Source: a virus
Taxonomy: Duplodnaviria; Caudoviricetes
Strand: one strand, 5' to 3'
Length of the DNA stretch: 64,000 nt
IMG/VR virus record: IMGVR_UViG_3300028591_000190
Coordinates: 7,853-71,852 of that record
Shown here: in pieces, positions 44,736 through 61,838 of the stretch
How positions within the stretch are numbered: position 1 is the first letter of the stretch
Layout: each line of letters begins with the position of its first letter
Made by a program: the position numbers and the translations under genes
The notes under the pieces: generated by a model
Told to the model about the DNA's origin: nothing
The model's input: only the letters and a program-made list of their open reading frames with translations
The model's database searches: none

Positions 44736-44766
44736 CTTTTTCTTCCTTTCTTTATCTTATAAATAT

Positions 44767-44795
44767 ATTATACCAAATTTTTTTATAAAAATCAA
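44767..44795 (-). promoter_or_regulatory. sigmaA-type promoter
   Basis: On minus: TTGATT, 17 nt ending TGG, TATAAT. Confidence 0.8.
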
Positions 44796-45289
44796 CTTTC
44801 ATCCCATTCAAAATCATTAGAAGAAAGGATTCTTTGATTAGATGAGCCTCTCATATTTAGTGTAACATCTCTTAAATTTATATCAAATCTGCCGTCTATA
44901 ATATATTCACATTGTGAAATAATTTGTTTAAGTTTCTGTATATTAATACTTGTCATTATCTCAGCTTTTGTATAACCAGTCCATAAATATATCTTAGTAT
45001 CTGGCAATTTAGTTTTTACTTCATTTATAACCATTAGAGTTAAAAACTGATTTTCAGGACAGAGTGGCTCTCCACCCATAATACACAGACTTCTTTTTAT
45101 ACCATTTGCCGTTAATGCTTTTATAATTGATTCTAATGTATCATTTGTAAATTCATATCCGCCTTCAAAATCCCAAGTTTCTGGATTATGGCAACCCTCA
45201 CAATGGTGAGGGCAACCTTGCGTAAAAAAAGTTACACAAACCCCAGGAGCGGCAGAAAAATCATTTTTTATTATTCCTGCGTACTTGAT
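44792..45289 (-). CDS. nrdG: Anaerobic ribonucleotide reductase activating protein (radical SAM), apparent ATC start
   Basis: (M)KYAGIIKNDFSAAPGVCVTFFTQGCPHHCEGCHNPETWDF has CxxxCxxC; MGGEP and RGSSNQR present. An in-frame TGA lies three codons upstream of the ATC. Confidence 0.9.
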   Translation of the reverse strand: MKYAGIIKNDFSAAPGVCVTFFTQGCPHHCEGCHNPETWDFEGGYEFTNDTLESIIKALTANGIKRSLCIMGGEPLCPENQFLTLMVINEVKTKLPDTKIYLWTGYTKAEIMTSINIQKLKQIISQCEYIIDGRFDINLRDVTLNMRGSSNQRILSSNDFEWDES

Positions 45290-45978
45290 AGGTCTTCACC
45301 TTCTTTCCAATCTTGATAATATTTCCATTTATATCCTAAATGAGTTTTTCTTCTTCCGTGTAAGTAATCAAATAAGCAACTTTTTGTTACTTTTAAATTG
45401 GAAGAAAGTAATACATCTGTACTATTTATATATCTATTTATCAAATTATTATTTTTATCTAATTGACAAATAATTTTTGGTCTTAAAGAAAAAGCATATT
45501 CTTTTATTTCTTCAGGTGTTTTATTTAGAATATTTTCTGTTTTTACTAATACATAATCATTATACTATACCTAAGTTATTTTATCTGCTTCCTAAGTATT
45601 CATTGTATCAGTTGCTTTTTCATAAGTTTCTAATATAGAACCATCTTTTAAACTAATTTTAGTATAACTTATTTTTGGTTTAGAGGTCATATCTCCTCCT
45701 AAGGTTGCATTATATCCTTTTCCATTAATACCATATGTATTATAAAATTGAATATAATATTGTTCTTTTTCTTTAAGTTCTTCTAAAGAATTAGCCGTAT
45801 CTATTTGTTCTATTTTAAAATTTTCAATACCATATTTTCTCATAGCTCTATATAAGGGCCTATCTGTTCCGTGATTAGCCTCATATTTATGCTATGTAAA
45901 ACGTTTCTCTAATGAAGAAGTAGTTAATCCTATATAACTTTTATTGTTTATAAGATTAGTTATTTTATATATATAAAT
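45271..45978 (-). mobile_element. Free-standing GIY-YIG homing endonuclease gene (235 aa, apparent ATT start, four TAGs)
   Basis: (M)YIYKITNLINNKVYIGLT...RF..H...E.YYI..YNT..GYNAT.GG is the GIY-YIG pattern; NUMOD1-like C-terminus (HLGYKWKY); the stop overlaps the first nrdG codons. Confidence 0.85.
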
Positions 45979-45984
45979 AAGTCT

Positions 45985-46539
45985 TCACTCCTTCCAAACC
46001 GCCGATTTAGTAAAAAAACGAAACATCAAAGACCCCAAGGAATTACCTACTACGATAATAGCAACGAACGCTAAAACTTTGATTGAAAACATATGGGCGC
46101 TTGCTAAATATCCTATATCGGCAACACAGTGTTCTGCTCCGAACAATATGAAAGCCGGCACGCATATAAGAACCATATATTCTTTTCCGTGTTTAAAACA
46201 TTCAACTGCGGCGTAAATAAGAATGCCGCAGATGAATGCATTTATGAAAGTAATATATAAGGGAGTATTAAGTTTCTTTTCTACTACTTCTACTGCTGTG
46301 TCTATTGGATAGAAGTAAAGTATCATTGCCCCGAGGGCATTTCCTAATAAAATCGGCAAGTTATTTATTATCCCTGTGTATCCAACCTTACCTGTATATA
46401 AGTTTAATTGGAAATTACAGACGAGAAATAGCCCTACGGAAAATATAACCGCTCCGGCTACTCCTCCTATTTTTAAATTTATATATACTCCTATTGCTAT
46501 TGCTATACCTGCTAAAATACTTTTTATGAATTCAGTCAT
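45985..46539 (-). CDS. Formate/nitrite transporter (FNT/FocA family), short form
   Basis: Multi-TM 184-aa protein with KSILAGIAIAIG, LNLYTGK, FILFGAEHCVAD and VGNSLGS, matching FNT signatures (LFTGN, FEHSVAN, GN..GG). ATGA overlap with the nrdD stop. Confidence 0.8.
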   Translation of the reverse strand: MTEFIKSILAGIAIAIGVYINLKIGGVAGAVIFSVGLFLVCNFQLNLYTGKVGYTGIINNLPILLGNALGAMILYFYPIDTAVEVVEKKLNTPLYITFINAFICGILIYAAVECFKHGKEYMVLICVPAFILFGAEHCVADIGYLASAHMFSIKVLAFVAIIVVGNSLGSLMFRFFTKSAVWKE

Positions 46540-47568
46540 TGTTCCATATACCCCGTGTGTTTTACTCTATGTTCTGTTTCATCTTGTTTTCCAAGATTGA
46601 AAGCAGTTTTATAATCACCGGTAAGATAACCAGTCACACGACGAAGCTGTTGTATATGACGGCTTCCACATTCAGGGCAACTGTCGTTAAATTCACCCTC
46701 ATATCCACAGTCGAGACATTTATCATTAGGAACATTTATTGCCATATAAGGAAGGTCTTTATCCATAGCATAATTTATAAGTTCTTCAAGAGCATCAATA
46801 TTTTTCCAAACAGTCTCTTCAAGTTCTACATAAGTAATACATCCTGCATTACTATATCCAGCAAGTTGAGATTCAATATCAATCTTATCAAATGGACTGA
46901 TATGTTTCCATACTGGAACATGAATACTATTTGTGAAATATTCGTGATCTGAAACTTCTGGAATAATACCATACTTTAATTTGAATTTTTTCATTGCTGT
47001 ATAACAAAGATTTTCCGCAGGAGTATAATATACACCAAAATTTAATTTGTACTGCTGTTTAAATTCAGCACAACGAGTTTTAAATAATTGCTCTATTTTC
47101 TTTGCGAGTTCCATACCTTCTTCTGTTGTATGGTCTTTGCCGATAAGGATTTGAAGTGTTTCGGCAAGTCCTAATTGACCAATAACAAGGGTTGAATGCT
47201 TCATGGCACTTTCAATTCCTTCTTCTGGTTTATACCCCATCATGGTATTATTTTCCCACATAAATTTAGCAGAAGCAGGAGACTGAGAACATATATGCTC
47301 ATAACGCTCAATCAATTCATCACGAGCATCTGTAATAGCATTGTCAAGAATTTCCATAAAACATTCGATGGAATCTTTTCCTGCGAGTTTTAATAATTTA
47401 TTACCTTTACCATCTGTAGCATATACATCATCAGCTAAATTTACTGCTTCCATAGCAAGAGTAGGAAGAATAATAGTAACTGGGGCGATATTACCACGAC
47501 CATCCTTCATTTGAGCGTTCGTGCCTTCTTCGGCATTTATATCAGAACCATTATAAGTACGACATCCC
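46536..47568 (-). CDS. nrdD: Class III ribonucleotide reductase, exon 2
   Basis: Begins (G)GGA TGT CGT ACT (GCRT); GRGNIAPVTIILP, YTPAENL, YFTNS, CLDC/CPEC zinc site and the RRVTGYL glycyl-radical motif. Confidence 0.92.
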
Positions 47569-48366
47569 CATGCCGTTATAAATAGACTATGTCATCAATA
47601 TTAGTTGTTTTAACCTTCTAATACTGCCTATCGTTTCGAGTGTTTGACACCCTACCCTACTCACTTCTTTATATAAGTTTTTCTCTTATACTATGTTTTC
47701 GGTAGTCGTTGAGCTTTTATAATTTATCCTTTGTAATCCTAATTTTCCTAATTTTTTATTGTGCCAATCTTTAAAAAACCATTGTCTTTTACAACTTCTT
47801 TGAAAACAATCTTGACCCATAGGATAATCTTCTCTAAATGCTTTTCCGCTATTATAGATTTTTATGTTTTTATTAGTTTCTAAATTAAAAACTCTATAAT
47901 ATATATTCCCTTTAATTCCAGCAATATGGACTCCTCGTAAATTATTTTCATAAGCATGTAAATCATTTTGGCTACGAGTTACCCATTCTAAATTATCAGC
48001 ACGATTATTTTGTTTATTTCCATCTTTATGATTTACTACTAATTCAGGACTATATCCATCACAAAAATGATAAGCAACTAACCTATGAATAAAGAATCTT
48101 TTTCTTATAGGAGAATATAAAACAACTCTTTTATAGCCAAGACTGTTTCTATCACCTTTTAAAGTTTTTCCTGTTTGTATATTTTTTACTTCTCCATAAT
48201 TACTAATAACATAATTATTTTCATAATTTTTAATAGGTTTCCATATTTTTTCCATTTTACTCCTTTCTTTAGGATAATATTAGGATAAATTAATTTTAGC
48301 ACACGAGTAACTTTTTAAAAAAGCTTCCTCCGTTTAGATAGGTTTAACGACCACAGGACAAAGTTT
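47569..48366 (-). mobile_element. Group I intron (798 nt) in nrdD
   Basis: 5' exon ends in U (ACC AU) and pairs with IGS GUGGUCG (P1 with U-G); intron ends in G; P3 CCUAUC/GAUAGG, R element CUCAACGACUA, S element GACAUAGUC. Splicing restores AT^G GGA TGT and gives 2292 nt in frame. Confidence 0.9.
47686..48255 (-). CDS. Intron-encoded NUMOD4-HNH homing endonuclease (I-HmuI-like)
   Basis: WKPIKNYENNYVISNYGEVKN (NUMOD4), IHRLVAYHF, VNHKDGNKQNNRADNLEW (HNH); SD AAAGGAG. Confidence 0.9.
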   Translation of the reverse strand: MEKIWKPIKNYENNYVISNYGEVKNIQTGKTLKGDRNSLGYKRVVLYSPIRKRFFIHRLVAYHFCDGYSPELVVNHKDGNKQNNRADNLEWVTRSQNDLHAYENNLRGVHIAGIKGNIYYRVFNLETNKNIKIYNSGKAFREDYPMGQDCFQRSCKRQWFFKDWHNKKLGKLGLQRINYKSSTTTENIV

Positions 48367-49625
48367 ATGGTCGCCACTTCTGTAGCAGGATCGTTTTCAT
48401 CATATCCAAAATTAGTAGTCCAATCTACATTAGCATAATTAGGATATAATCTCTTTGCTGTAGATTTAAGTGCTAATCTAAATAAATCATAATTTGGATC
48501 GCCGGGATAACGATTAACACCTTTTTTAAGTTTAAAAATACCACAGGGGAATATAGGAGTTAAATGAACTGAACCAAGTCCTTCAAGTGATACATTTAAT
48601 AAAGTTCTTGTAATCAATCTTCCTTCTGGAAGAGTGCAAGTTCCATAATTTAAACTGGTAAATGGAAGCTGATTCCCACTTCTACTTTGTAAAGTATTTA
48701 GATTATGATATAATGCTTCAACCGCTTGATGGGCTTCTTCTTCTACTTGTTCCATTGCGAATTGATAAGCCTTAACATTATATTTATATTCAGGATCTTC
48801 AATAGATAAATTAGGATCAAATGGTGGAATTTTACTTATATCATAATCATTAGGATACAACCATTTCATACCTTTTTTATATGCTTTATAAAAAGATTTT
48901 CTCACATATGGAACCATAGTCCAATCAATATGAGTTGCGGCTACACCACCAAATTGACATAAACTTTGAAGCTGGAATATAACAGCAACAAGTTGCATAG
49001 CAGTATCCAAAGAACCAGCAGGACGAACATCAGTTTGTCTTGTTTTAAATCCCCTAGCTAATAAATCATCAAATGGAATTGAAAGACAATTATGCATTCC
49101 AACAGCATAAGAATCTAAATCATGAATATAAATTCTATTATTAATATGATTACGAGCAAACTTTGGAGAAATCAAATTTTTCAAAGCATACTCTTTAGTC
49201 ATAACACTTGTTGCTTCGCCCATTCTTCCACCAAATGAATATTCATCAACATTGGCATTTTGATTTTGAACATTTGAAGCGTTAAGTTTTTCTCCAATAG
49301 CATCAAAGAATGTAGACTATGTAGTTCTTGCTACTTCTTTTTTAAATCTATATCTGATATAAGAACGGGCTACATCTCTACGTTCTGAACGCATAAGATA
49401 ATCTTCAACTAAATCTTGTATTTGTTCTACTGTTAATATTTTATTATCAGGATGATCAAATAAAATCTTAGCAACAGCTTCAATTTCATCAGCTATATCT
49501 TGTGCCGTATCAGTTTCATATAATACACCATCAACCTCTAAAAAAGCATTGTTAATAGCGTTTATAATTTTTAATTTATCAAAATCTACTATATCACCAT
49601 TTCGTTTTTTAATTTTTACAGCCAT
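48367..49625 (-). CDS. nrdD: Class III ribonucleotide reductase, exon 1 (ATP cone, one TAG)
   Basis: ATP cone (IKKRNGDIVDFDKLKI) joined through TAG 49317-49319 to NVQNQNANVDE...IYIHDLD...HNC...LQSRSGNQLPFTS...EVAT. Confidence 0.92.
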
Positions 49626-49635
49626 ATATTAACCT

Positions 49636-49682
49636 CCACTATATATTCCCCTATTTTTAGGGGTCATTACTATATATGGTAT
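49636..49682 (-). promoter_or_regulatory. Tandem NrdR-box-like operators upstream of nrdD
   Basis: Minus-strand 16-mers ATACCATATATAGTAA and GGGGAATATATAGTGG resemble acaCwAtATaTwGwgt; cores are 31 bp apart. Confidence 0.65.
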
Positions 49683-49686
49683 TTCT

Positions 49687-50268
49687 TCAAGGTATCTTAT
49701 CATATTTTGTCCAACGAATACTATCTAAATAAATTCTTTGAACTGATTGTATGAAGTCTTCATTAGTTTCATTTCTTAATACTGTATACTCAAACGGCAA
49801 AAGAAAAAAGTCCTCATCATCAGCTATATATCGTCTAAATATTTCTGGTATATCAGGATTTTGTTCTCTCATAAGTTGACGGCAAATTCTAATCCTACCC
49901 GGCACATCAACATAATATACTTTTAAATCAATATCTTTATGAAGCAATATATTCTCTATTCCTTCTGGATTAAGAACTGATATATTTATTTTATCTGTTT
50001 TTAAATCCTCTTTTAAAGTTCCATAAAACCAATCATTAAATTCAGCAACTTCAAGGAATTTATTTTCTAATACCTTTTTAGCAAAATCTTCTCTTGATAA
50101 AAAATGATAATCTACTCCATCTTTTTCATAGTCTCTTGGAGGCCGAGTAGTGCAAGATATGGTGGGAGATAAAAAATTATCCCCACCTTCTTCAAGAACT
50201 TTATTTAATATAGTATCTTTTCCTGCTCCGGCTTCTCCAATAATTCCAATCATTTTATATTTCTTCAT
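49687..50268 (-). CDS. gmk: Guanylate kinase-like protein
   Basis: GEAGAGKDT P-loop, SCTTRPPRDYEKDGVDYHF, WFYGT. Confidence 0.85.
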   Translation of the reverse strand: MKKYKMIGIIGEAGAGKDTILNKVLEEGGDNFLSPTISCTTRPPRDYEKDGVDYHFLSREDFAKKVLENKFLEVAEFNDWFYGTLKEDLKTDKINISVLNPEGIENILLHKDIDLKVYYVDVPGRIRICRQLMREQNPDIPEIFRRYIADDEDFFLLPFEYTVLRNETNEDFIQSVQRIYLDSIRWTKYDKIP

Positions 50269-53200
50269 CTTCTGAAAAACCTTTCGCTCGTTCTGTTTGG
50301 AGAATTATATCTCCATTTTCATCTATTTCTGTAATCTTATATAATTGATGACCGATAGAATTAGCATACTTCTTAGCTATGAAATTATCTTCTGACCTCA
50401 TTCCCATAACCATAATCATGCTCCCTCTATTAAACCAAGATTTCTCAACTATATGTTTAACACCATCGGCACCTTTTTGAGAAATCTGCTTATCAAATAA
50501 TGCAAAATATTCTTTTCTAAATTTCACAGTTACTACACCAGAAGTTGTTAATAAACTTACAGTGCTTTTAGTTTTATTTTTAGCAATACAAGTGCCGCAA
50601 ATCTTACTTAATTTATATAATGTGATAATCTTTCCACCTTTTGGATATGTCTTTTCAACTACTGGATTTTCTGGTAAATCTTCAAAATTAACAATGCCAT
50701 ATTTGCCTTTATTTAAATGAGCCAACTCATGTTCGTGATAATAGAAACATAACGCTTCCATTTCCCAATGAGATATAGTGCCATCTGCGTATTTCTTCCA
50801 GTCTTCCATAAATATATCATCATTCAAGTTTTGAAGTATTTGCTTACCGTCTTCTTTTATCCAATTTCTAAACATATCCATCCAGCTTTGATAAAATTTA
50901 TCCCAAGTTTTAGCATTTAATGAATATCCTTCAAAGTCTTCAAATCCCAATTCAGCTAAAAAATTCATTGCTCTATCATCTAATTGATAATATTCATCTG
51001 CGGCAGTTCTTCTACATTTTGCTTTTAAGTAGCGAGTGAATTCATATACCCTCTTTGCCATTCTTTTTTCATCTGTATCTATTGGAAGCATATCTCTTTT
51101 AATTAGAGTTGGCAAATTTTGAAGGGTAAGTCTACTTTTTTTATCACAAGTTTCATATATGAACCAAGCCATACATTGACGACGGTCCATCATTTCATCA
51201 AATGCTCCACCTTTAATAAGTGAAATCATTGCAGGTTTCTTTGGCTTGACTCTTAAATAAAAATCTTTTGGTGATACAAACGGACGTTTTTCTATTGTGG
51301 ATTCAATTACATCATCACCCACATTTAGCATTGCTTTCATACCATACAAGATACGATTATTCTTTGCATCAGGTTTAAAACCATAATCAGATGAATTTAT
51401 ATTTACAAGACTTAAATTAATTCCTGCTGCAATAATTTCACCCATAGCTTTTGCTAATTTAGAATAGTCTGTTTGTCCTCCATTATCAGGATCAGTTGCT
51501 CCACTATTTACAATAAGACAAGCTGTATTCCAATAAATTGGATTCCAATTTGTTGCTATATATAAAGTTTGAACTCCAATAAATGAATATGCTAACGCGT
51601 GAATAATACTAAATGAATAACCCATCTGTGGGCCAGCTCCATATTTCCACACATATTCACCGAGTTTTTTACTTTTTGCTCTATCCAAAACCATTTGATG
51701 AAGTTCTGGAATTTTACTCATTTGTTTCTTACCAACAATTTTACGAGCCATATTTGCTTCTCCAAGAGAGAAATTACATATATTTTCATCCATTAACATC
51801 AACATAAGCTGTTCCTGGCTCGGCGGCACGCCATATGATTGTTTGAAATACGGTTCAAGACTTTTTTGTTCGTCATAATTCAAACCATAATTATCCATCT
51901 CACGATACCATAATTCAATATTCTTCTTATTCCGAACATATTTATCTAACGGACGCATTTCACCTTCTTCGCCCATCAGACGCATTAAGCCATTGGCATC
52001 TGCCATTTCCAATACATTCTGAGGAGCAATCTTCTTTGCCGCCTGTGCCCCAACGGGACTATCAAACTGGAACGTATTGATAACTGAAACATTACTTAAT
52101 GCATCCCATATTCTTTGATCTTCCAGAGGAAGAACATTTGGATGAAAATATTCATCATATATTTCTCTTAGTTTTTTATCTGCTGGTAAAACGCCATCTT
52201 CTTGCATTAAGTTAATACATTGAACTAATTTATCCTGAACTTCTGTTACAAGGAAATCATATTTTGTAAGTCCCATATATTCAGCATCGTGTAAATCATA
52301 CTGAGTTATAATTTCACCTTTCGGTGTTCTCATAAATGCACTACGCTCAAATGGGTCATTATCAAATAATATGACGCCTGATGCATGACTTCCTCTATGG
52401 TTTATTAATCCTTCAATTTCAAGAACAATATTGAGAAGTCCTGGATATTGATCAATTGCTGTTTTGAATAATGCAATCGGCCTTCTATCTTTATCTTTAT
52501 TTCCATAATAAGTTTCTTTAACAGACCAAGTAAATCCTCTTTCTTCTGGAATAAGTGATGATAAAAATCTCGCATCATCAACATCAATTCCTTCTGGATA
52601 ATCATCAGTTCTATATCCGCGGCAAGCTGTTAATATCGCACTTTTCGCGGCTTCAGTTCCATATGTAGCTATCAAAGTACAACCGAGATTTTCTTTTGCC
52701 CAATCACTTCCTTTAAGCCATTGACTTCTTTCTTCTCTTATCTTTTGGAGAATAAGAGGACGCTTTGATGGACAAATATCAATATCAATATCACCAAGTT
52801 CTACACGTTCTTCATTTAAGTATCTAAAGAATGGAAGATTCCATTCAATCGGATCAAGTTGAGTTATTCCCATAAGATAATGATTAAGTGCTGCACAAGA
52901 TGAACCACGACCAGCACCAACCATTGAACCACAGTCCCAAATTAAATCAATATAATGTTGAAGAGTATTAGGATAACGAAACATATTAGTTTCAAGTTTT
53001 TCACTAATAATTGATTTAACTCTTGCTTCTTCTTCTAATCTATCTAAGTAGGTATAATCTCCTGTTTCACAAGCATGAACCCACCCTTTATTTATTTCAT
53101 CAAGTTTATTCCAATTTTCATTTACCCAGTATCTATCTTGAGGATCTTTTGAAGTGAATAATCTACTCAATGTTGGATATGAATGTTTCATATCATCTGC

Positions 53201-54223
53201 ATAATCATTATTCACTCCCCACCAAGCTGATGGCTCATAATTCTTTACTGGGACTTCTGGAATATCTTGTTTATGAAACAAACTATATCTTTGAATTTTA
53301 TTTTGAATTTCTATTGTATTTTCAAAGATTTCATATATTTTTTCATTTTCAAATGAAAGCAATAATAAGTTTCCGGCTTCTTCAATATCCATTAATCTTG
53401 CAAATTCATAGAAATCATCAACTTCTCTTTCGCCTTCTTTTGACGTAAGATATGCTTTATGAATTGTTCTATATTCTTCTGTGAGATAATGAGCATCAGT
53501 GCCGACTACCATTTTTATACCATATTCTTCGGCAACTTCTTCTAATAATTTATTTGCCAATATTTGTTCTGGTTTATTACTTGGAGCACACTCAATATAA
53601 AAATCATCTAAGAATAATTCTTTCATTAACCTTAGAAATTCTTTAATTTTTCTATCATAATATTCAAATTTAATTTGTGTTTGTTCTCTAGTAATAATAT
53701 CTATATCATCATCATTTTCAATAGGAATGTTCTTATATCTTTGTAATAATAAACTTGGAAGTTCTCCTCCAATACAAGCAGACGTTGCTATAAGATGACC
53801 TCTACTAAATCGCTCAATAATTTCAATAAGTTCTTTTTTAAGTGTAGGAACTCTTTCCATACGGCGAGTTTCATACATATTAAACCAAGCTATTGAACTT
53901 AATTCACGAAGTATTCTATGACCAACTTTATCTTTGGCAATCAAAATAAAGTGGTAATATTTTTGATTATCACCACTTCTATCATCAATCAGATATATTT
54001 CATTTCCTAATGCGATTGTGAATTCTGGATGTTCTTTATATACTTCTTCTGCATATTTATTTACTTCTACATGCGCTCCCAAACATTCATGATCTGTAAT
54101 TGCTATTCCTGTAAGTCCTAATTCTATTGCTTTGTCAATCAAGTCTTTAGGTCTATTGATACTGTCTAATAGACGAAGATTTGAATAACAAGTATGATTG
54201 TGTATGCCGAAGTATCCTCGCAT
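50255..54223 (-). CDS. dnaE: DNA polymerase III alpha subunit (C family, PHP domain)
   Basis: HNHT...AITDH (PHP), GAGRGSS, DIDID, HASG, KYDFL, YSFSIIHA; 1322 aa uninterrupted. Confidence 0.93.
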   Translation of the reverse strand: MRGYFGIHNHTCYSNLRLLDSINRPKDLIDKAIELGLTGIAITDHECLGAHVEVNKYAEEVYKEHPEFTIALGNEIYLIDDRSGDNQKYYHFILIAKDKVGHRILRELSSIAWFNMYETRRMERVPTLKKELIEIIERFSRGHLIATSACIGGELPSLLLQRYKNIPIENDDDIDIITREQTQIKFEYYDRKIKEFLRLMKELFLDDFYIECAPSNKPEQILANKLLEEVAEEYGIKMVVGTDAHYLTEEYRTIHKAYLTSKEGEREVDDFYEFARLMDIEEAGNLLLLSFENEKIYEIFENTIEIQNKIQRYSLFHKQDIPEVPVKNYEPSAWWGVNNDYADDMKHSYPTLSRLFTSKDPQDRYWVNENWNKLDEINKGWVHACETGDYTYLDRLEEEARVKSIISEKLETNMFRYPNTLQHYIDLIWDCGSMVGAGRGSSCAALNHYLMGITQLDPIEWNLPFFRYLNEERVELGDIDIDICPSKRPLILQKIREERSQWLKGSDWAKENLGCTLIATYGTEAAKSAILTACRGYRTDDYPEGIDVDDARFLSSLIPEERGFTWSVKETYYGNKDKDRRPIALFKTAIDQYPGLLNIVLEIEGLINHRGSHASGVILFDNDPFERSAFMRTPKGEIITQYDLHDAEYMGLTKYDFLVTEVQDKLVQCINLMQEDGVLPADKKLREIYDEYFHPNVLPLEDQRIWDALSNVSVINTFQFDSPVGAQAAKKIAPQNVLEMADANGLMRLMGEEGEMRPLDKYVRNKKNIELWYREMDNYGLNYDEQKSLEPYFKQSYGVPPSQEQLMLMLMDENICNFSLGEANMARKIVGKKQMSKIPELHQMVLDRAKSKKLGEYVWKYGAGPQMGYSFSIIHALAYSFIGVQTLYIATNWNPIYWNTACLIVNSGATDPDNGGQTDYSKLAKAMGEIIAAGINLSLVNINSSDYGFKPDAKNNRILYGMKAMLNVGDDVIESTIEKRPFVSPKDFYLRVKPKKPAMISLIKGGAFDEMMDRRQCMAWFIYETCDKKSRLTLQNLPTLIKRDMLPIDTDEKRMAKRVYEFTRYLKAKCRRTAADEYYQLDDRAMNFLAELGFEDFEGYSLNAKTWDKFYQSWMDMFRNWIKEDGKQILQNLNDDIFMEDWKKYADGTISHWEMEALCFYYHEHELAHLNKGKYGIVNFEDLPENPVVEKTYPKGGKIITLYKLSKICGTCIAKNKTKSTVSLLTTSGVVTVKFRKEYFALFDKQISQKGADGVKHIVEKSWFNRGSMIMVMGMRSEDNFIAKKYANSIGHQLYKITEIDENGDIILQTERAKGFSEDEEI

Positions 54224-54247
54224 TTTTTTATTTTCCTTTTTCTTTTT

Positions 54248-54276
54248 ATTATATCATATTTTTTATTATAAGTCAA
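54248..54276 (-). promoter_or_regulatory. sigmaA-type promoter for dnaE
   Basis: On minus: TTGACT, 17 nt ending TGA, TATAAT. Confidence 0.8.
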
Positions 54277-54896
54277 ATAAGTGTATAATCTTTATCATGT
54301 ATTTCTTCTGCTATTGCACGCCAAATCATAAATAAAGCACGATAATCTGGCGGTATATATGCAGGTGAATAACACAATATTAGCTCATTTGTTTCATCTG
54401 CTAATTTGCCGAGATCGTAATCTTTGATTTTTTCTATATCTATCTTATCCATATAAGGACAATTTGATATATCAAAGATTATTGAATTATGATTACCAAC
54501 CCAAGTATAATGATTAATATTACCAGTATCAAGTAATCTCTTTACCCAATTACCAGAATTGATTTCAATGATGGGTTCTTTCCATTCATCTCTATAATTT
54601 ACATCATGATGATGGTCAATATTTATAAGATTAAATGATTCATTTTCTTCTGATAAAATATCAACAATTTGTTCATGACTTGTAATGAACTTGATATTAT
54701 CAGTTTTCATAGCTACTTCTGTAATATATCTTGTAAGATATTCATACAACCATAGGTTAGGTCTAGCTAAGTTAAAATATGGAAACTTTTCACAAATTGT
54801 ATCCATATCATTTCTTGGAGGGTCAATCATATCATTATATCCATCAATACTTGGCCCCATAATAATATCAAAATCTATTGTTGTAATAGTTTTCAT
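54273..54896 (-). CDS. Hypothetical protein, UPF0489/arginase-like metal-binding motifs
   Basis: TIDFDII, SHEQI, NIDHHHD, NSGNW, CYSPAY; 207 aa intact. Confidence 0.5.
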   Translation of the reverse strand: MKTITTIDFDIIMGPSIDGYNDMIDPPRNDMDTICEKFPYFNLARPNLWLYEYLTRYITEVAMKTDNIKFITSHEQIVDILSEENESFNLINIDHHHDVNYRDEWKEPIIEINSGNWVKRLLDTGNINHYTWVGNHNSIIFDISNCPYMDKIDIEKIKDYDLGKLADETNELILCYSPAYIPPDYRALFMIWRAIAEEIHDKDYTLI

Positions 54897-56091
54897 GCCT
54901 TTATAATCACCAATTTTTTAGATGCACGAGTTATAGCAGTATATAACCAACGAGCATGACTATCGGCGTTATCTCCTTTCAAATATTCTTCAAATACAAG
55001 AACCTTTTCAAATTCTGAACCCTGGGCTTTATGACAAGTTATAGCATAACCAAAATCAAACTCATTAGGTTTTAATTGACTAGGTATTTTTGAAAAATTA
55101 TTTCTATTTACAAGAGGCTCTCCTTCAATAAATAATTTTCTATCCATTCTAACATGACAAAAAGTTCCCCAAAGTTTATCTCTTTCACTATTTAAATCAT
55201 AATAATCAGGAATAAAATCAGCAAACATTGTAGGAGTATAACAAAAATTTTCACGATTTTTATATTCAATATCAGATATGACACCAGTTACACCATTAAT
55301 CAAAGAATCTCCATAAAAGTTTGCTATATTCCAATTATTACGAGTGCATATAATTTTATCTCCGTCTTGAGGTAAAGGATCCTCCCATCCAAATAAATCA
55401 TATCTCATTTGAGCATTAAGACCTATCCGAGTTGCATTTTTGGCACATATAATCTGATCGGCCCAACCTAGCACTCCCATATTATTACGATATTCATCCC
55501 AACTAATAACTCGGACATCATTGCCTTTAAAATATTTTAAAGGTTTTTTATCACGAACATCCATACTTAATCTTAAAATATCACTTGTATCTTCTTGTCT
55601 CATAACTTCATCAAGAAATACATGAGGATGCTCTAAGATACCATTATCTAATGCTTTTACAGGAGGTAACTGACCAGGATCTCCAAGAGCAAGAATATGA
55701 ATACCATATCCAAGCAAGGTTTCCCACATATGCTCAGGAACCATAGATACTTCGTCTATAACTATAAGTTTATATAGTTTATCTAATCTCTCTTTTACTT
55801 TAAAATAAAATGTGCCGTCTTTGCGCGGGATGGCATTATATATGAGCCGATGAATAGTTGAAGCATTCGGACATCCTTTTCTTTTAAGAACATTTGCCGC
55901 TTTGCCTGTATAAGCCGCGTAGCATACTTCTTCTTCTCGGTCAAGACCTATGGCATCAATTATAAAAGCCACAAGTGTAGATTTACCTGTTCCAGTCAGG
56001 CGTAGCCAGCAATACAACTATATAATTCATGAGCGTTGTATCTGGCCACTACTTCTTTCAACCCTTCTTCTTGTTTATTATTTAATATCAA
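54893..56091 (-). CDS. RecD2/Dda-like SF1B helicase, interrupted by a 5-nt insertion in Walker A (possibly a pseudogene)
   Basis: TTG 56091 with SD GGGAGGA reads ...IAGYA then TGA. Removing TGACT (55994-55998) gives GYAGTGKST. Downstream: IVIDEVSM, GDPGQLPPV, YAITCHKAQGSE, YTAITRA. Confidence 0.8.
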
Positions 56092-56127
56092 GGATTTATT
56101 TCCTCCCTTCTTTTATATTCTATATAT

Positions 56128-56156
56128 ATTATATCACATTTTTTATAGAAAATCAA
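56128..56156 (-). promoter_or_regulatory. sigmaA-type promoter
   Basis: On minus: TTGATT, 17 nt ending TGA, TATAAT. Confidence 0.8.
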
Positions 56157-56239
56157 CTTTACCCTCCAATTCGGTCCAAAAAATCGAGGCGACTTTTTTG
56201 ATTTTGGCGGACGGGGCTTAGGACCCCGACCGGCCCAGC

Positions 56240-56266
56240 AAAAAGGCGAACCCTTTGGCTCGCCTT
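56240..56266 (-). terminator. Intrinsic terminator after the DHH gene
   Basis: On minus: AAGGCGAGCC-AAAG-GGTTCGCCTT then TTT. Confidence 0.8.
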
Positions 56267-58022
56267 AAAAATAATACATCATTTTAGAATCATAGTCAAT
56301 TATATCAATTTGTGGTGTTAATTTACCGCCCCAAGTATTTACGGCACAAGTGCCTACAATATTCATTACATTAACTTTTCCTACTTCTGGAACTAAACTC
56401 TCATATTCTTCTATTGAGGAATAACGCTTAATAGCTTCCACTCCATTAGGAAGTAAAATCTTAATTGTAGGATATTTTTCTGGTGACATTATTTTTATTG
56501 TATCTTTTGTAACTATAATATCTTTGATTAAGATTTCAGGTCGTTCAAGGCCTTTACCCCAAATACTATCATAATCACTAATATCCATAATCGTGTTTTT
56601 ATCTATACTATTTACGTCCCAAACAAAATCTACTATATGAGATGGATTGAAAGTGCAATCTTTCAAATCTTCATTTGTATCTTTTATAAAATCATCAAAA
56701 TCTGAATCATAAATCCCAACACCAAATGCTGAGGGATGACCTTCGGCAAGATATACCGTGATTTGACTATTCATAAATTCTTTAAAATTTTCAAGTCCTT
56801 CATATTCATATGACCGAGCTGAACCTTCCCATGCAGGAGAACCATCAGGTCCAGTAGTAGGAGATAAAAGTAAGATTGGTTGTTTATATTTAGACAATAA
56901 TTGATTAGCAATTAAGCCTGTGAAGTTTCTATTAATACTAGCTGGCATTTTAACTGCGAGAATTTTATTCTCATTTAGTTTTTGCTTTTGTATCATATTA
57001 TCAATTAGCTGATAACCTTCATCTCTTTGTTTATCCTGTTTAGCTTTTATATTTCTAGCAGTTCGGCAGGCTTGTTCGGCCATTGTTTCCATCTACCCCT
57101 TATAGCCACGTTTTGTAGAAGGAATTTCTAAATCTGCTTTCCAATCTAACATCGCATCAAAGAATAATTTCTTTTCTTCTTGTGTGCCGCTTCGGGTAAT
57201 GGCATTTACTAACGGGCTTATATACCATCCAACAGTAAAAGGATTTAGTCCTCCATGATTACTTATTAAATAATCCTACATTTTACATATCTCATAAAAT
57301 AACTTATTATGAACGTTCTTAGTGCCGCGTTTGATAATTTCTCTTGTTTCAAAATCCCGAACATCCATTACATCGGCAATAATGCCGAATGTGGCAAGAT
57401 CGTAAAAATAATCTGAATAATTTTTATCTAATAGCTGGTCGATATATTGACAAAATTTTAATATCATACCAACGCCTGATAATGATTTTGTAGGATAATC
57501 ACATAACTGATTATTGATAGTCACAGCATATGGAGAATATTTTTCAGCATGGTGATGGTCAATAACTAATACATCAATCCCTCTATCATGAAGTTCTTTA
57601 TGAATATCATAATCATTAGAGCTGCTATCGGGAGCAATTACTAACTTTGTGTCTTTTGGAATATTATCTGTTAATCCATGTTGTTTTCCATCATGAAAAT
57701 CATATGAGATATTATTCTCAACAAACCCAGGGAATAACAGATGTAAATAATTTAAAAGTAAAGCTGCGGAAGTATATCCATCGCAATCACTATCAACTTG
57801 AACAAATATCTTATCATCATTGTTAATATGCTTGATTAACATTTTTACGCCTTCTTGCATATATTTGATAGTGGCTGGATTTATAATATCTTCCTAACTT
57901 GTATTTAAGTAATGATAAATATCATCTTTTGTAAATCCTCTGTTGGCAAATATCTATTCAACAGGATCAAGCATTATATATTCTGTAAGAGGAAGAAGTG
58001 AAGGTCTGATTTGATACTCCAT
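56265..58022 (-). CDS. DHH-family RecJ-like ssDNA exonuclease (585 aa, four TAGs)
   Basis: QVDSDCDG, IAPDSS, VIDHH, SGVG, GIIADVM, WEGSAR, AEGHPSAFG; track fragments joined by TAG; ATG 58022 with SD AAGGAG. Confidence 0.88.
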
Positions 58023-58029
58023 ATAACAA

Positions 58030-58335
58030 TCACTCCTTATTTTTCTTTGCTTTCATTATTTTAGCGAAATCTTTTATATATTGTTTTTTAGCATCTTTTT
58101 TAAGTTTAGAACTAGCTTCGGCTATTGTGCTAACAACCTGATTTACAAAATCAGCGCTCTTTTCTGCTTCCTCTTTAAAATATCCACATAATCCTACAAT
58201 ATCTTCTATATATTCAGTAAGAACAATTAGGCTTGTTAGCCCTTCGGCATTATCTCCACATATCTCATTCAACTTATTTATTGCTTTTACTATTTCATCT
58301 TCTTTATGCCTTATATAATTAGTTTCATTATACAT
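58030..58335 (-). CDS. Hypothetical protein (101 aa)
   Basis: Intact helical ORF overlapping the primase stop by one base. Confidence 0.6.
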   Translation of the reverse strand: MYNETNYIRHKEDEIVKAINKLNEICGDNAEGLTSLIVLTEYIEDIVGLCGYFKEEAEKSADFVNQVVSTIAEASSKLKKDAKKQYIKDFAKIMKAKKNKE

Positions 58336-59435
58336 TATACAACCCTTTCTTTATATAACTGTAAGAATATATCTTTCCCACAATCAATCGGGGAATCTTT
58401 ATACCCAGTAAGCATATCTTTATCTATAATAAAAGATATTGATATACTATTACCAAATTTACTTTTCATCTTTTTAAACTTATCAACTAATCGGTTAAAT
58501 TCTTTATCATTTCTTTCTTGAAACTGCCTATCAAAAGCAATAATAATTTCAGCACCAGTTTCTTTTAACATATTCATTTGATAAGTTGACAAACTAAAAC
58601 CACAACAAGCAACCGATATATCATTTTCAGTCCCAAAATATGAACGATATAATAAACAAGATTTTTCGCTCTCAAATACAAATACTTTTTTCATATTTTT
58701 TATATTATTTTGAGAATGATTAAAATTGTATAAATTCATTCCAAGAGGATGACGATATATAAGGTTATTTATTTTTAATGGTCTATATTTGCCGTAATAT
58801 TCAGCTTCTTCTGCCACAACTGTTCTGCCGCGTAAGCCTATAAATCGCCCCATTTTATCATAATGAGGGATGGTAATTTGATCGCCTCCGGGATAAAATC
58901 CAATATTACTAAGTTTTAAAACTTCATCTGAGATACCTTCTTTTAACCAAGGATCAATTTTTATTTTATAGTCAAGATTTTTTAAAACTGCTGGATCATA
59001 AGTTTTAAGAACTACTTCTGGTTGTCCTTTATTTACTTTAATTGTAGAGATACGTTCCCACTCAGAAAGTTGTTTGTAATCTTCCATTTTGTGAGTATCT
59101 TCTTCTACATATACGCCGTTAATATGAAAATAATTAGCAATCCAGCGAACGGCATCATTTAAGTCATAATCTTCGTGCCACTGTATATCAGCTACTTTTC
59201 TCACCAACTCATAAATATCAAAATAACAATCGCATTCAGTATAACATCTGAAAAGCATTGAATTTTCATAGAAGTATAACTTACGACTGCCTTCATTTGG
59301 CGGATTGTGGCATATAGTATCAGAGAGAATCCCGAAACTAGAATATTCAGGATTCCCTCCAAATGTATTTAATAAATCAAAAATATTTTCTAAGGTTAAT
59401 TCTTCTTTTATTTCATCTTTATTATAATCTATCAT
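58335..59435 (-). CDS. DNA primase (zinc finger + TOPRIM)
   Basis: TICHN...FRCYTEC zinc finger, IPH..K.GRFIGLRGR, VFESEKS, IIIAFDRQF; start set at ATG 59435 (ATGA overlap). Confidence 0.85.
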   Translation of the reverse strand: MIDYNKDEIKEELTLENIFDLLNTFGGNPEYSSFGILSDTICHNPPNEGSRKLYFYENSMLFRCYTECDCYFDIYELVRKVADIQWHEDYDLNDAVRWIANYFHINGVYVEEDTHKMEDYKQLSEWERISTIKVNKGQPEVVLKTYDPAVLKNLDYKIKIDPWLKEGISDEVLKLSNIGFYPGGDQITIPHYDKMGRFIGLRGRTVVAEEAEYYGKYRPLKINNLIYRHPLGMNLYNFNHSQNNIKNMKKVFVFESEKSCLLYRSYFGTENDISVACCGFSLSTYQMNMLKETGAEIIIAFDRQFQERNDKEFNRLVDKFKKMKSKFGNSISISFIIDKDMLTGYKDSPIDCGKDIFLQLYKERVV

Positions 59436-59710
59436 AATGTAATAACTTTTACACAATAACCAATAAGTCCAAAGGTTTCATTTACATAATCACATAGCCA
59501 CTTCTGAGGGTCGCCTCTTTTACCTTCTTGTTTCTGCAAAAGCAAAATATCTTCTGCGTCTTTATGGCTCATATGATATTCAATCAGTCCACGATGACCT
59601 CCCCATTCTTCCCAGGTTTTAGGAGTAGGGAGAGACCTCTTTTCAAGCTGTTTTGCCAGAGAAATTTTCTTGTCTTTTTTATTGAATTTCTTATTGTTAT
59701 TTTTTGCCAT
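59432..59710 (-). CDS. Hypothetical protein (92 aa, basic N-terminus)
   Basis: Intact ORF with SD AGGAG between helicase and primase. Confidence 0.6.
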   Translation of the reverse strand: MAKNNNKKFNKKDKKISLAKQLEKRSLPTPKTWEEWGGHRGLIEYHMSHKDAEDILLLQKQEGKRGDPQKWLCDYVNETFGLIGYCVKVITL

Positions 59711-59734
59711 TGTTATCTCCTAATTTTTTATTCT

Positions 59735-61261
59735 TTAAAAAGCTGATTCTTCTTCTACTAGAATTTTTATATCATCAACATTTATTAGTTCATAATTCCA
59801 AGTTGTACAAAACATTGGTTGAATACGACAGGTTCCTAAATCGGCTTTGCACCATAAATAAACTCCTTTATAGCGACCCCGTCTATTTTTATAAACAGAC
59901 ATTTTGATTGTCGGTTTGTCAAATACATTCGCATTTAAAATTGTTTCTAAAGCTTCTATATCATCTTTCGTTGTATTCAAAAGAATTGAACCATAGTCAA
60001 TTTTATCGGCTATTGCTTTTGCTCCTCTTAAAAGATTTTGATCGGGAGTTTCACTTGTTGTATAATCAGCATTTAGCTGAGTAGCGCTCATAATGAATAC
60101 TCCATATTGATTACATATATCTTTCAGCTTTGTAGATAACATAAATAATATATTATCTTCTCTTAATCTAACACCGCCAGACCGTCGTGTGATTTCTTCG
60201 AGAATTTTGATACTCGTATGGATATAGTCATGAAAAACATATTTAATATCGTGATCTCGAAGATTTTTCTTAATAGTATTTTCTACGTCTTGGAGGGAGA
60301 AGTCTGGCAATTCTTCAATGAAGATTGGGGAATTTTTAAGAATATTGGCTGCTTCTTGGACTCTGTCATCTTCATCTCCTTCATAATAATTATTAATTAT
60401 ATGCTCTTCATTTACATTAGCAAGAAAAGCAAGCATCATTGTTTGAATTTCCTCTTTTTCTTGCTCTGTTGTAATAAATAATACAGGTTGTGCTATACCA
60501 GTTTTTATCCACCCAAACATATCATCATAAATCTTATTACATCCTATATAGCAACAATCGGCAATCATACTTCTTGTTTTTCCGATACCAGTTGCCGCTG
60601 ACCTTAAATAGAATTTTTTAAGTCTCGCACCACGAGTAACCGCATTGATAAGTGGACCGTAAAGTGGCACGCCAACCTCTGGATGTTCTTTAAATTTCTG
60701 TATTAACTCAAAAATGCCCTCTCCGGCCGGTGATGCTTGACCGTAGTCCTAATCGGCATATGTCATTCTAATTCGTGAAATTTTATCATCTACTAAATCG
60801 GCAAGACTTGTCAAAGAACTATTATCAAGAAACGCTTCTTGCATTTCTTTTTTCTTTGCATCTAAGATATTATCATCATCATATATATCACTTACATCTA
60901 CGCCGTTTTGATAATATACACGAAGAAGTGTCATTTTCTTCAAACGATTATAGTAATAATCAAAAGTCAATTCATTAGCATATGTAGAAACTTCTAATAA
61001 CCAATCGTCTCCTTTTTCGGCTTGATATATGCCCTAACTTTTTGGTTTTGATGCCAAATAATCATTTATATTTTGTAGTGTAATAACTTTAGCACCAAGT
61101 TCATGAACTTTATATATGGTTCCAAAAACTACTTTATGAAATTCATTTGAGAAATCTTCATCAGTTACAAAATATTTATCATCCATATCCAAAAGAGAAG
61201 GATTATTAAAAACGCATCCTATAACCTATAAGACGGCAGTTGTGTCATAATATTTAGCCAT
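59735..61261 (-). CDS. DnaB-like replicative helicase (508 aa, three TAGs)
   Basis: SAATGIGKTRSM Walker A, FITTEQ, FHDYI, MSATQLN, IADKID, YKNRRG; N-terminal domain joined through TAG. Confidence 0.88.
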
Positions 61262-61779
61262 TATACGTCCTCCTCTAAGAATTTGAATACTTCAATCTTC
61301 TTCTTTTCTACTTTTGGAGGTGGAATTCTAATTTCTCTTATATTCACTACAATTTCACCTACATCTTTATTTATTTCTTTTGCCGTTTTAATTTTTTCAA
61401 AATGTTCTTGCGCTTTTTGATAACAATATGGGACAATACCGAGTGTGTTATATTCCATAGTTGCAGGATGTTTTAATACCTCATAATAATATTTTAAAGC
61501 ATTTAAAATACCTTTATAAGTATAATTAAAATCTCGCCCTAAGTAGCGTTTCATCTACATTTGGATAACTGGATAATTAGCTTGCTTATCCCATAATTTA
61601 TCTATGTATTTGCGGAGTTCTAATTCATCTTGTTGTTCGGTAAATTCTTCATTATTGTTTTCTTCTGCTTTTTTAGAACACTCTTTATGAGCGTATCTAC
61701 TATTTGTTATCTAAATGAAAGGAACTTTATCTCTGTCAAATCTTTCTCCGCAATAAAAGCATTTTACAAAATGTGCTAT
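61261..61779 (-). CDS. Zinc-finger protein upstream of the helicase (172 aa, apparent ATA start, two TAGs); possible helicase loader
   Basis: SD GAAAGGAGG followed by ATA GCA CAT... = (M)AHFVKCFYCGERFD...YAHKEC; continuous through TAG into track ORF 61261..61554. Loader role is positional inference. Confidence 0.65.
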
Positions 61780-61809
61780 TTTTTTGCCCTCCTTTCATTT
61801 TATAATAAT

Positions 61810-61838
61810 ATTATACCATAAAATAAGAAAAAAATCAA
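61810..61838 (-). promoter_or_regulatory. sigmaA-type promoter
   Basis: On minus: TTGATT, 17 nt ending TGG, TATAAT. Confidence 0.8.

Follow-up and report, generated by a model that had tools for sequence, protein, structure and literature searches.

Probable near-cognate ATA, ATC and ATT start codons of two different origins in three phage genes

Three genes in a stretch of DNA from a ruminant-gut phage are probably translated from near-cognate AUH codons (AUA, AUC or AUU; ATH in the DNA), which by comparison with related phages have two different origins. The stretch, here called the window, is 64 kb long and covers bases 7853-71852 of the 71.8-kb IMG/VR virus record IMGVR_UViG_3300028591_000190 (Duplodnaviria; Caudoviricetes), which is estimated to be 42% complete. 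It has 30% GC, its large virion genes are open only with TAG as a sense codon, and near-identical DNA is held by sheep, goat and bovine gut metagenomes. ATT, ATC and ATA are listed as possible starts in NCBI table 11. The first of the three genes encodes a zinc-finger protein and lies upstream of a DnaB-like helicase gene; judged from its relatives, the ATH start is a trait of this gene and not of the genomes that carry it, acquired on at least five occasions and retained while the protein diverged by 27-44%. The ATT of the second gene, for a GIY-YIG homing endonuclease, and the ATC of the third, nrdG, for the activase of the anaerobic ribonucleotide reductase (RNR), belong on the same kind of comparison to one mobile cassette that is missing from the nearest relative.

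Results

All three starts read as the original prediction had given them on the minus strand: TGA AGA CCT ATC AAG TAC GCA for nrdG (ATC 45289-45287), TGA AGA CTT ATT TAT ATA TAT AAA for the endonuclease (ATT 45978-45976) and AAAGGAGGG CAAAAAA ATA GCA CAT for the zinc-finger gene (ATA 61779-61777). The genes and their start signals are given below, with energies for the duplex of the Shine-Dalgarno (SD) sequence with the anti-SD; G001 and G002 are related genomes, L082/L083 related loci and P0003 a related protein.

61261-61779, minus: zinc-finger gene, 172 codons, 2 TAG read as glutamine (Q), phrog_4680; first gene of its operon
61777-61779, minus: putative ATA initiation codon of the zinc-finger gene; aligned to Met1 of P0003, kept in L082/L083 and the G002 clade
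61787-61795, minus: SD AAAGGAGGG of the zinc-finger gene; 7-8 nt before the ATA, -16.1 kcal/mol
61810-61838, minus: putative sigma-A-type promoter TTGATT-N17-(TGg)TATAAT, a consensus match only, directly after a terminator hairpin
45271-45978, minus: free-standing GIY-YIG homing endonuclease gene, 235 codons, 3 TAG read as Q; PF01541 and PHROG matches, absent from G001
45976-45978, minus: putative ATT initiation codon of the endonuclease; aligned to the TTG of a G001 paralogue with the same SD geometry
45988-45995, minus: SD GGAAGGAG of the endonuclease, contributed by the final codons of the FNT-like gene; -13.9 kcal/mol
44792-45289, minus: nrdG, anaerobic RNR activase, 165 codons; Fer4_12 and Radical_SAM matches, first 19 nt overlapping the end of the endonuclease gene
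45287-45289, minus: putative ATC initiation codon of nrdG; aligned to ATG in ~70 relatives
45296-45303, minus: SD-like GAAGGTGA of nrdG, within the 3' end of the endonuclease gene; -15.2 kcal/mol

An in-frame TGA lies two codons upstream of the ATH codon in both nrdG and the endonuclease gene and five codons upstream in the zinc-finger gene, so no N-terminal extension is possible, and the claim that neither nrdG nor the endonuclease has an ATG, GTG or TTG start available holds. The first canonical codon downstream is found only after 72 codons in nrdG, 47 in the endonuclease gene and 78 in the zinc-finger gene. When stop-to-stop open reading frames (ORFs) of the whole 71.8-kb record were screened for the stretch before the first ATG, GTG or TTG, with TAG read as Q, these three were the only real genes flagged; the screen is blind to ATH starts with a canonical codon <=10 codons downstream. 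Alignment with homologues puts each ATH codon at residue 1, where methionine had been expected.

Each ATH codon is preceded at a spacing of about 7-9 nt by an SD-like run, as had also been proposed. The predicted duplexes are strong, and those of the first canonical codons downstream reach only -0.7 to -3.4 kcal/mol, all energies being for a generic Firmicute anti-SD that may differ from the 16S tail of this phage's host. SD sites of the strong AAGGAGG type across the phage genes point to a low-GC, SD-dependent host. The RNA of the start regions is not unusually structured (fold z-scores +0.7, +0.2 and -1.5). A screen on energy only (strong SD, ATH and a long ORF) returned 10 hits with internal and adjacent codons among them, so an SD plus ATH is not diagnostic by itself. 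The in-frame TGAs form part of the SD or lie beside it (GGAGTGA, AGGTGA) and appear to be no separate signal.

Sequencing error was rejected as the source of the ATH codons because they recur in independent assemblies and in a goat-gut run. The ATA and its context, with substitutions around them, are found in two other IMG/VR assemblies from different metagenomes (L082/L083). Logan contigs of metagenome runs were also aligned to the stretch, with runs X2 and X3 covering it in part. A contig of the probable source run matches 45167-46100 with 0 differences, and goat-gut contigs from a separate study cross the endonuclease/nrdG junction (45146-45337) with 12 differences, all inside nrdG and none at the ATC. 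The ATT region (45850-46000) is covered by contigs of that goat-gut run with 0 differences. The aligned contigs were DNA; 7% of the sampled sequence words also occurred in one RNA run. The other assemblies and the other study's metagenome thus rule out an error of sequencing or assembly at these bases.

For the zinc-finger gene, a profile scan yielded at least 294 related viral loci, of which 80 were retained, read and dereplicated by eye from printed contexts into ~40 distinct lineages. At the conserved M-A-H-x-V-K-C position, 26 of these have ATG, 4 TTG, 4 GTG, 3 ATA, 2 ATC and 1 ATT. Where the codon is ATH (for L170, see Discussion), no canonical codon lies between the upstream stop and the first cysteine, and the strong SD belongs to the ATH codon. 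P0003, 42% identical, begins MAHNVKCFYC where the window has (ATA)AHFVKCFYC. In a quick maximum-likelihood tree of 55 unique zinc-finger proteins, the window clade groups at 100% support with that of G002, whose proteins are 56-58% identical to the window protein. Every member of the joint clade has ATA, and the codon is kept between the two although their spacers differ. L143 (ATA), L117 (ATC), L124 (ATC) and L170 (ATT) are placed elsewhere, among relatives with ATG, GTG or TTG. Eight of eight further contigs at 73% identity to L124 keep both the ATC and the upstream in-frame TAA.

The rest of these genomes follows the usual rule. The same start screen was run on two divergent relatives, the 156-kb G002, which is 89% complete and has 113 large ORFs, and the 67-kb G003 with 53 ORFs. 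In each it flagged the zinc-finger gene alone, and genome-wide relaxed start use was therefore rejected for both. Because, in addition, nrdG of G002 (L003) starts with ATG and the helicase gene downstream of the zinc-finger gene has ATG in 37/47 distinct contexts, the ATH start appears specific to the zinc-finger gene. Its recurrence, its long retention and its being the sole gene flagged point to gene-specific selection for a weak zinc-finger start.

The helicase gene itself has ATA in two of these contexts, L124 (~1725; ATA AGC AGT CAA TAT GTT GAT) and L177 (ATA AGT TCA AAA TAT GTA GAT). L124 thereby carries two adjacent ATH-start genes, zinc-finger and helicase.

The zinc-finger protein is a CCHC zinc ribbon (C7, C10, H31 and C34 invariant) followed by a helical domain, modelled with a predicted local distance difference test score (pLDDT) of 89. 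Foldseek found no match to the model in the PDB at E <= 0.001, the VIA wide comparison gave Z < 5 only, and no Pfam match supports a DnaD or loader identity; the weak structural matches are the DnaD-like domains 2zc2 (Z 4.6, 67 aligned, root-mean-square deviation 3.3) and 2i5u (Z 4.4), and SPP1 G39P (Z 3.3). In all 80 loci read the gene lies directly upstream of the DnaB-like helicase gene, and mainly from this fixed place the protein probably has a replication accessory role and may be a loader. The operon runs from the putative promoter through the zinc-finger gene, the helicase gene and a small ORF to primase.

59735-61261, minus: DnaB-like helicase gene, its start overlapped by the stop of the zinc-finger gene

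The other two starts have a different history. The endonuclease has an N-terminal GIY-YIG domain (PF01541, 1.6e-7, residues 2-81) and matches PHROG homing-endonuclease families to 1.5e-26. NrdG, encoded near the two halves of nrdD, matches Fer4_12 (2.7e-37) and Radical_SAM (6.2e-10) and has GCPHHCEGC (CxxxCxxC) at codons 25-33; its first ATG, codon 72, is downstream of this motif, and a start there would delete it. About 70 related viral nrdG loci have ATG (two TTG) before (K/R/N)-Y-A-G-I. The 58-kb G001 is collinear with the window at 93-97% identity and differs from it in mobile-element content. It lacks window 45284-45986: after its FNT-like gene (stop TAA) come a hairpin, a 112-nt spacer, AAAGGAGG and ATG TAC TAT GCA GGA. 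The endonuclease thus shows presence/absence polymorphism at one site, window 45284-45986 versus 112 nt in G001.

Both ends of the inserted DNA meet a start codon. Upstream, the TGA stop of the FNT-like gene (45985-45987) is in frame with the endonuclease ATT, and the start, GAAGGAG-N9-ATT TAT ATA TAT AAA, has the same geometry as that of a G001 GIY-YIG paralogue, AAAGGAG-N9-TTG ATA ATT TAT AAA, which lies in an nrdD insertion with intron-like flanks. Downstream, the endonuclease ORF runs 19 nt into nrdG, and the SD-like GAAGGTGA, encoded by the final codons of the endonuclease, stands 6 nt upstream of the ATC (9 nt as aligned spacing). The two starts sit in the 13-mer GTGAAGACYTATY, of which the 64-kb window holds only two perfect copies, 689 nt apart.

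45287-45299, minus: right copy of the direct repeat, GTGAAGACCTATC, flanking the endonuclease ORF
45976-45988, minus: left copy of the direct repeat, GTGAAGACTTATT, flanking the endonuclease ORF
45985-46539, minus: FNT-like membrane protein gene (Pfam PF01226, 4.2e-12), upstream neighbour of the endonuclease cassette

The likeness of the two sites continues upstream of the repeat (TTGGAAGGA versus TTGGAAAGAAG). The 13-nt repeat, which gives both genes one and the same SD-spacer-ATY context, is read as a duplicated junction that would travel with the cassette. The weak nrdG start is, on this evidence, a by-product of cassette insertion over an ATG-bearing start region; since that region is still present in G001, the nrdG ATC does not appear deliberate. 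Two expectations of the original prediction therefore divide between the genes. Orthologues share the start codon in the zinc-finger gene, where ATA and ATC are kept, and not in nrdG, where nearly all relatives have ATG; a 'deliberate' weak start likewise fits the zinc-finger gene, with ATA/ATC kept and at least five origins, and fails for nrdG, whose ATC came from the cassette insertion.

Comparison of nrdG in the window with its G001 copy gives 29 synonymous and 5 non-synonymous codon differences; 21 of the synonymous ones are packed in codons 2-38, beside the insertion site. Such a silent tract is what co-conversion, or divergence of the target site, would be expected to leave around a homing site. 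The same silent differences show that the N-terminal stretch of nrdG is protein-coding.

Run X3, a 2024 gut metagenome, holds one contig that matches the endonuclease until one base before the ATT (window 45979; ...GAGGTAAGCG, then T ATT) and continues beyond 45979 as unrelated sequence, ...TTTGTGTAAATCACAATCCCGAGGTAAGCG on the gene's strand. This single contig suggests that the endonuclease is also present at another site or in another phage, with the ATT going with it. Exact-pattern scans of metagenome and viral contigs for the endonuclease 5' end gave 0 hits, and protein-based scans found relatives at <=50% identity only.

The G001 copy of nrdG (L002:3068-3085) has a 9-nt in-frame insert with a TAA in its radical-SAM motif, GGC TGC CCG TAA CAG CCT CAT CAC, that is, GCP*QPHHC. 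Two proline codons flank the insert. The 110-nt tract around it differs from the window by 21 silent changes that are richer in GC. The gene may be broken, the insert may make the target site immune to the endonuclease, or it may be a short insert that is bypassed.

Among the alternatives to ATH initiation, the one that fares best, while itself unlikely, makes nrdG a casualty of the endonuclease insertion, with an ATC barely used or unused, a decaying gene and a host activase that may substitute. The ATG of the ~70 relatives and the overwriting of the start region by the cassette fit such a course, and the in-frame TAA inside the cysteine motif of the G001 copy suggests loose constraint. However, 165/165 codons are open, 72 of them before the first ATG, in a 30% GC genome, a strong SD stands at the correct distance from the ATC, and the same junction occurs in sheep (2019) and goat (2025) samples with mostly silent differences in the gene body. 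In the goat-gut allele 7-8 of the 12 differences are third-position silent (by hand codon arithmetic) and the remaining ones fall on the variable x residues of CxxxCxxC; this predominance of silent changes suggests that nrdG is still under selection.

The zinc-finger protein could also be made from an ATG 19 nt upstream (61796-61798, ATG AAA GGA GGG CAA AAA A...) if the main frame were reached through a +1 shift or through slippage of RNA polymerase at the run of seven A (A7). Deletion of one A from A7 does bring this ATG into frame, both elements are kept in L082/L083, and a GGG>GGA change is silent in that frame. However, the upstream ATG has no SD, 'AAAGGAGG' would be coding by coincidence, and P0003 starts MAH at exactly the ATA position. 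The sister clade (G002, L101-104) keeps the ATA and has neither an upstream ATG nor an A-run, and the other ATC/ATA lineages also have neither. We consider slippage very improbable and rejected it because it is not conserved in sister clades.

Less probable again is a start of the endonuclease and nrdG at the GTG of GTGA, which shares bases with the upstream TGA, with the frames reached by a 10-nt hop or group-I-type splicing, so that GTG AAG ACT joined to TAC GCA GGA would give MKTYAGII. The frames fit: GTGAAGACYTATY is common to both sites, and once 45284-45979 is taken out nrdG is in frame with the GTG; the 5' junction is then preceded by U and the 3' junction by G, which is the arrangement of group I introns. 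We rejected this reading, however, because SD and GTG are in direct contact (spacing 0 nt), the would-be intron is taken up entirely by the endonuclease ORF, with no space for a ribozyme, and Rfam finds no intron; moreover, G001 is not a clean 'intron-less' allele but has a different 112-nt spacer, and the endonuclease would need a different shift. The least credible reading, TGA read-through or a -1 frameshift to FNT-endonuclease and endonuclease-NrdG fusion proteins, could draw on the in-frame TGA before all three ATH codons and on a mini-ORF (ATG...TGA) that precedes the ATC in the nrdG frame, but it was rejected because TGA is the normal stop of ordinary genes and TGA-stop ORFs give a coherent gene map, only promoter DNA lies upstream of the zinc-finger gene's TGA, no slippery heptamer lies near the endonuclease/nrdG overlap, and a membrane-channel/nuclease product would be functionally senseless.

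Neighbouring features

The early/replication block around nrdG also contains the following genes.

48315-49625, minus: nrdD N-terminal half, early/replication block
47686-48255, minus: HNH endonuclease, between the nrdD halves
46536-47510, minus: nrdD C-terminal half, early/replication block

The FNT-like protein is short, with 184 aa against the 240 positions of the Pfam model PF01226, and its gene stops with TGA here and with TAA in G001. The element that splits nrdD (47569-48366, 798 nt) carries an HNH/NUMOD4 endonuclease; G001 is contiguous across that point and has nrdD insertions of its own at 13855-14897 (the GIY-YIG gene with intron-like flanks) and 16029-16996. An Rfam search of the window's nrdD HNH element gave no group I intron, and no phage tRNA gene was found in the window.

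Directly after nrdG, window 44747-44793 (TTGATTTTTATAAAAAAATTTGGTATAAT) is a promoter/terminator-like stretch, a short motif common to many phages. Its summed contig depth is 20- to 300-fold above its flanks in four ruminant metagenomes, many of the contigs there diverge on both sides, and the helicase (56150) and zinc-finger (61838) operons have similar copies ahead of them. Elsewhere, the Walker A motif of a Dda/RecD-like helicase gene (55990-56010, minus) holds 5 extra bases (GCC TGA CT GGA ACA). These are also present in G001, and three of the six differences within the short ORF upstream are silent in its frame; a -1 shift to ALTGTGKS, a 5-nt skip to GYAGTGKS and a shared pseudogene are possible readings.

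Discussion

ATH initiation is the best reading for all three genes. We observed the sequences, the alignments, their conservation and the insertion polymorphism, and from these we infer initiation, its efficiency and its selective reason. Two of the three AUH positions would pair with the initiator tRNA, and a long, well-spaced and unstructured SD helix would hold the codon in the P site. By analogy with published Firmicute and E. coli measurements, the output would be a fraction, about 5-30%, of that from AUG. A strong promoter and a strong SD combined with ATA would give a small, fixed amount of the zinc-finger protein, and the helicase would be translated from its own GAGGAGG SD and ATG. 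The weak zinc-finger start appears old and maintained; most likely it was favoured by selection because it would hold the protein at a low level compared with the helicase.

For the cassette, a weak ATT start would suit a selfish nuclease that must stay scarce. Insertion of the cassette appears to have overwritten the start region of nrdG, from spacer and SD to ATG and first codons, so that nrdG would now start at the ATC behind GAAGGTGA. Ribosomes ending the endonuclease 13 nt downstream may aid initiation at this ATC, and because the activase acts catalytically a lowered nrdG output may be tolerated. The original prediction had also looked to initiation factor 3 (IF3) and to TAG recoding. 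A scan for an IF3 homologue found no IF3_C domain in G000 and G001, which are fragments (42% and 33% complete), and no link to TAG recoding was found, several ATH-start zinc-finger lineages having no TAG in the gene. As only 1-3 genes per genome have ATH starts, they do not appear to form a genome-wide programme.

Several points weigh against ATH initiation or its history as set out here. Initiation at these codons is read from DNA sequence, the tree of zinc-finger proteins comes from a quick search only, and the lineage counts depend on dereplication by eye. The ATT lineage L170 is ambiguous, with an in-frame GTG three codons upstream that has no usable SD. For the endonuclease ATT, the evidence of conservation comes from a single paralogue, one independent sample and a contig whose upstream context is different. 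The constraint on nrdG could largely predate the insertion, and the in-frame TAA of G001 may mean that the gene is dispensable in this lineage.

Near-cognate starts are already known from E. coli infC and pcnB and from S. aureus cvfC1, ccpN and infC. In S. aureus, cvfC1 (AUU), ccpN, infC and citZ (AUA) have non-canonical starts behind extended SDs, natural AUU/AUA starts reach ~10% of the signal from AUG, or as much as 30% in rich medium, and the ccpN AUA is conserved to B. subtilis (PMC13009471). Older E. coli measurements, as quoted in PMC5499595, put AUA, AUU and AUC at 5-7.5%, and an AUA mRNA with an optimised initiation region equals AUG in vitro (PMC5499595). E. coli infC and pcnB are cited as having AUU starts with IF3-discriminated initiation (PMC5499595, PMC13009471).

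The phage genes share with the four S. aureus genes a low-GC, SD-dependent setting and an extended SD at a short fixed distance before AUU or AUA. Like ccpN, the zinc-finger gene has a non-canonical codon conserved among orthologues, and like cvfC1 it encodes a small zinc-finger protein as first gene of an operon. The S. aureus starts, however, belong to cellular regulators and have Ribo-RET and reporter proof, whereas the phage genes are known here from metagenome sequence. In the phage zinc-finger family, unlike the S. aureus genes, the codon varies between ATA, ATC and ATT and arose repeatedly. With E. coli infC and pcnB the phage genes share, in the classical model, a near-cognate AUH that would limit translation, the model to which the original prediction had appealed. 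infC encodes IF3 and is thereby autoregulated; a comparable loop is not evident in the phage, and no IF3 gene was found in the fragments.

Phage T4, through its free-standing seg/mob and its intron-encoded I-TevI, has GIY-YIG nucleases in or between nucleotide-metabolism (nrd) genes. Low expression of the T4 endonucleases is attributed to promoter timing and occlusion of the ribosome-binding site, and is not known to depend on an AUH start. The window endonuclease resembles these T4-type enzymes in its presence/absence polymorphism, its silent-difference tract at the insertion and an expression that would be kept low, and differs from them in its probable AUH start.

The public zinc-finger protein cluster (P0001, P0002) begins at an internal methionine or after a TAG. 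Standard gene callers would shorten all three proteins, with nrdG losing its iron-sulfur motif, and annotations of this phage group would therefore misreport them. To the known near-cognate starts the present analysis would add a before-and-after pair in which an endonuclease has overwritten its neighbour's start and left nrdG dependent on a near-cognate codon. It would also add a phage gene family with recurrent, long-kept ATH starts against an ATG genomic background. A speculative and rather doubtful extension is that the zinc-finger AUH start acts as a sensor: through the dependence of AUH initiation on the fidelity of host initiation (IF3 level, ppGpp, nutrients), it would tie the onset or extent of phage replication to the translational state of the host; if true, it would explain the repeated gain and long retention of ATA/ATC/ATT (and TTG/GTG) in the zinc-finger gene alone. 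The zinc-finger gene offers a clean comparative case in which a weak start as a dosage setting would be testable by ATH/ATG exchange.

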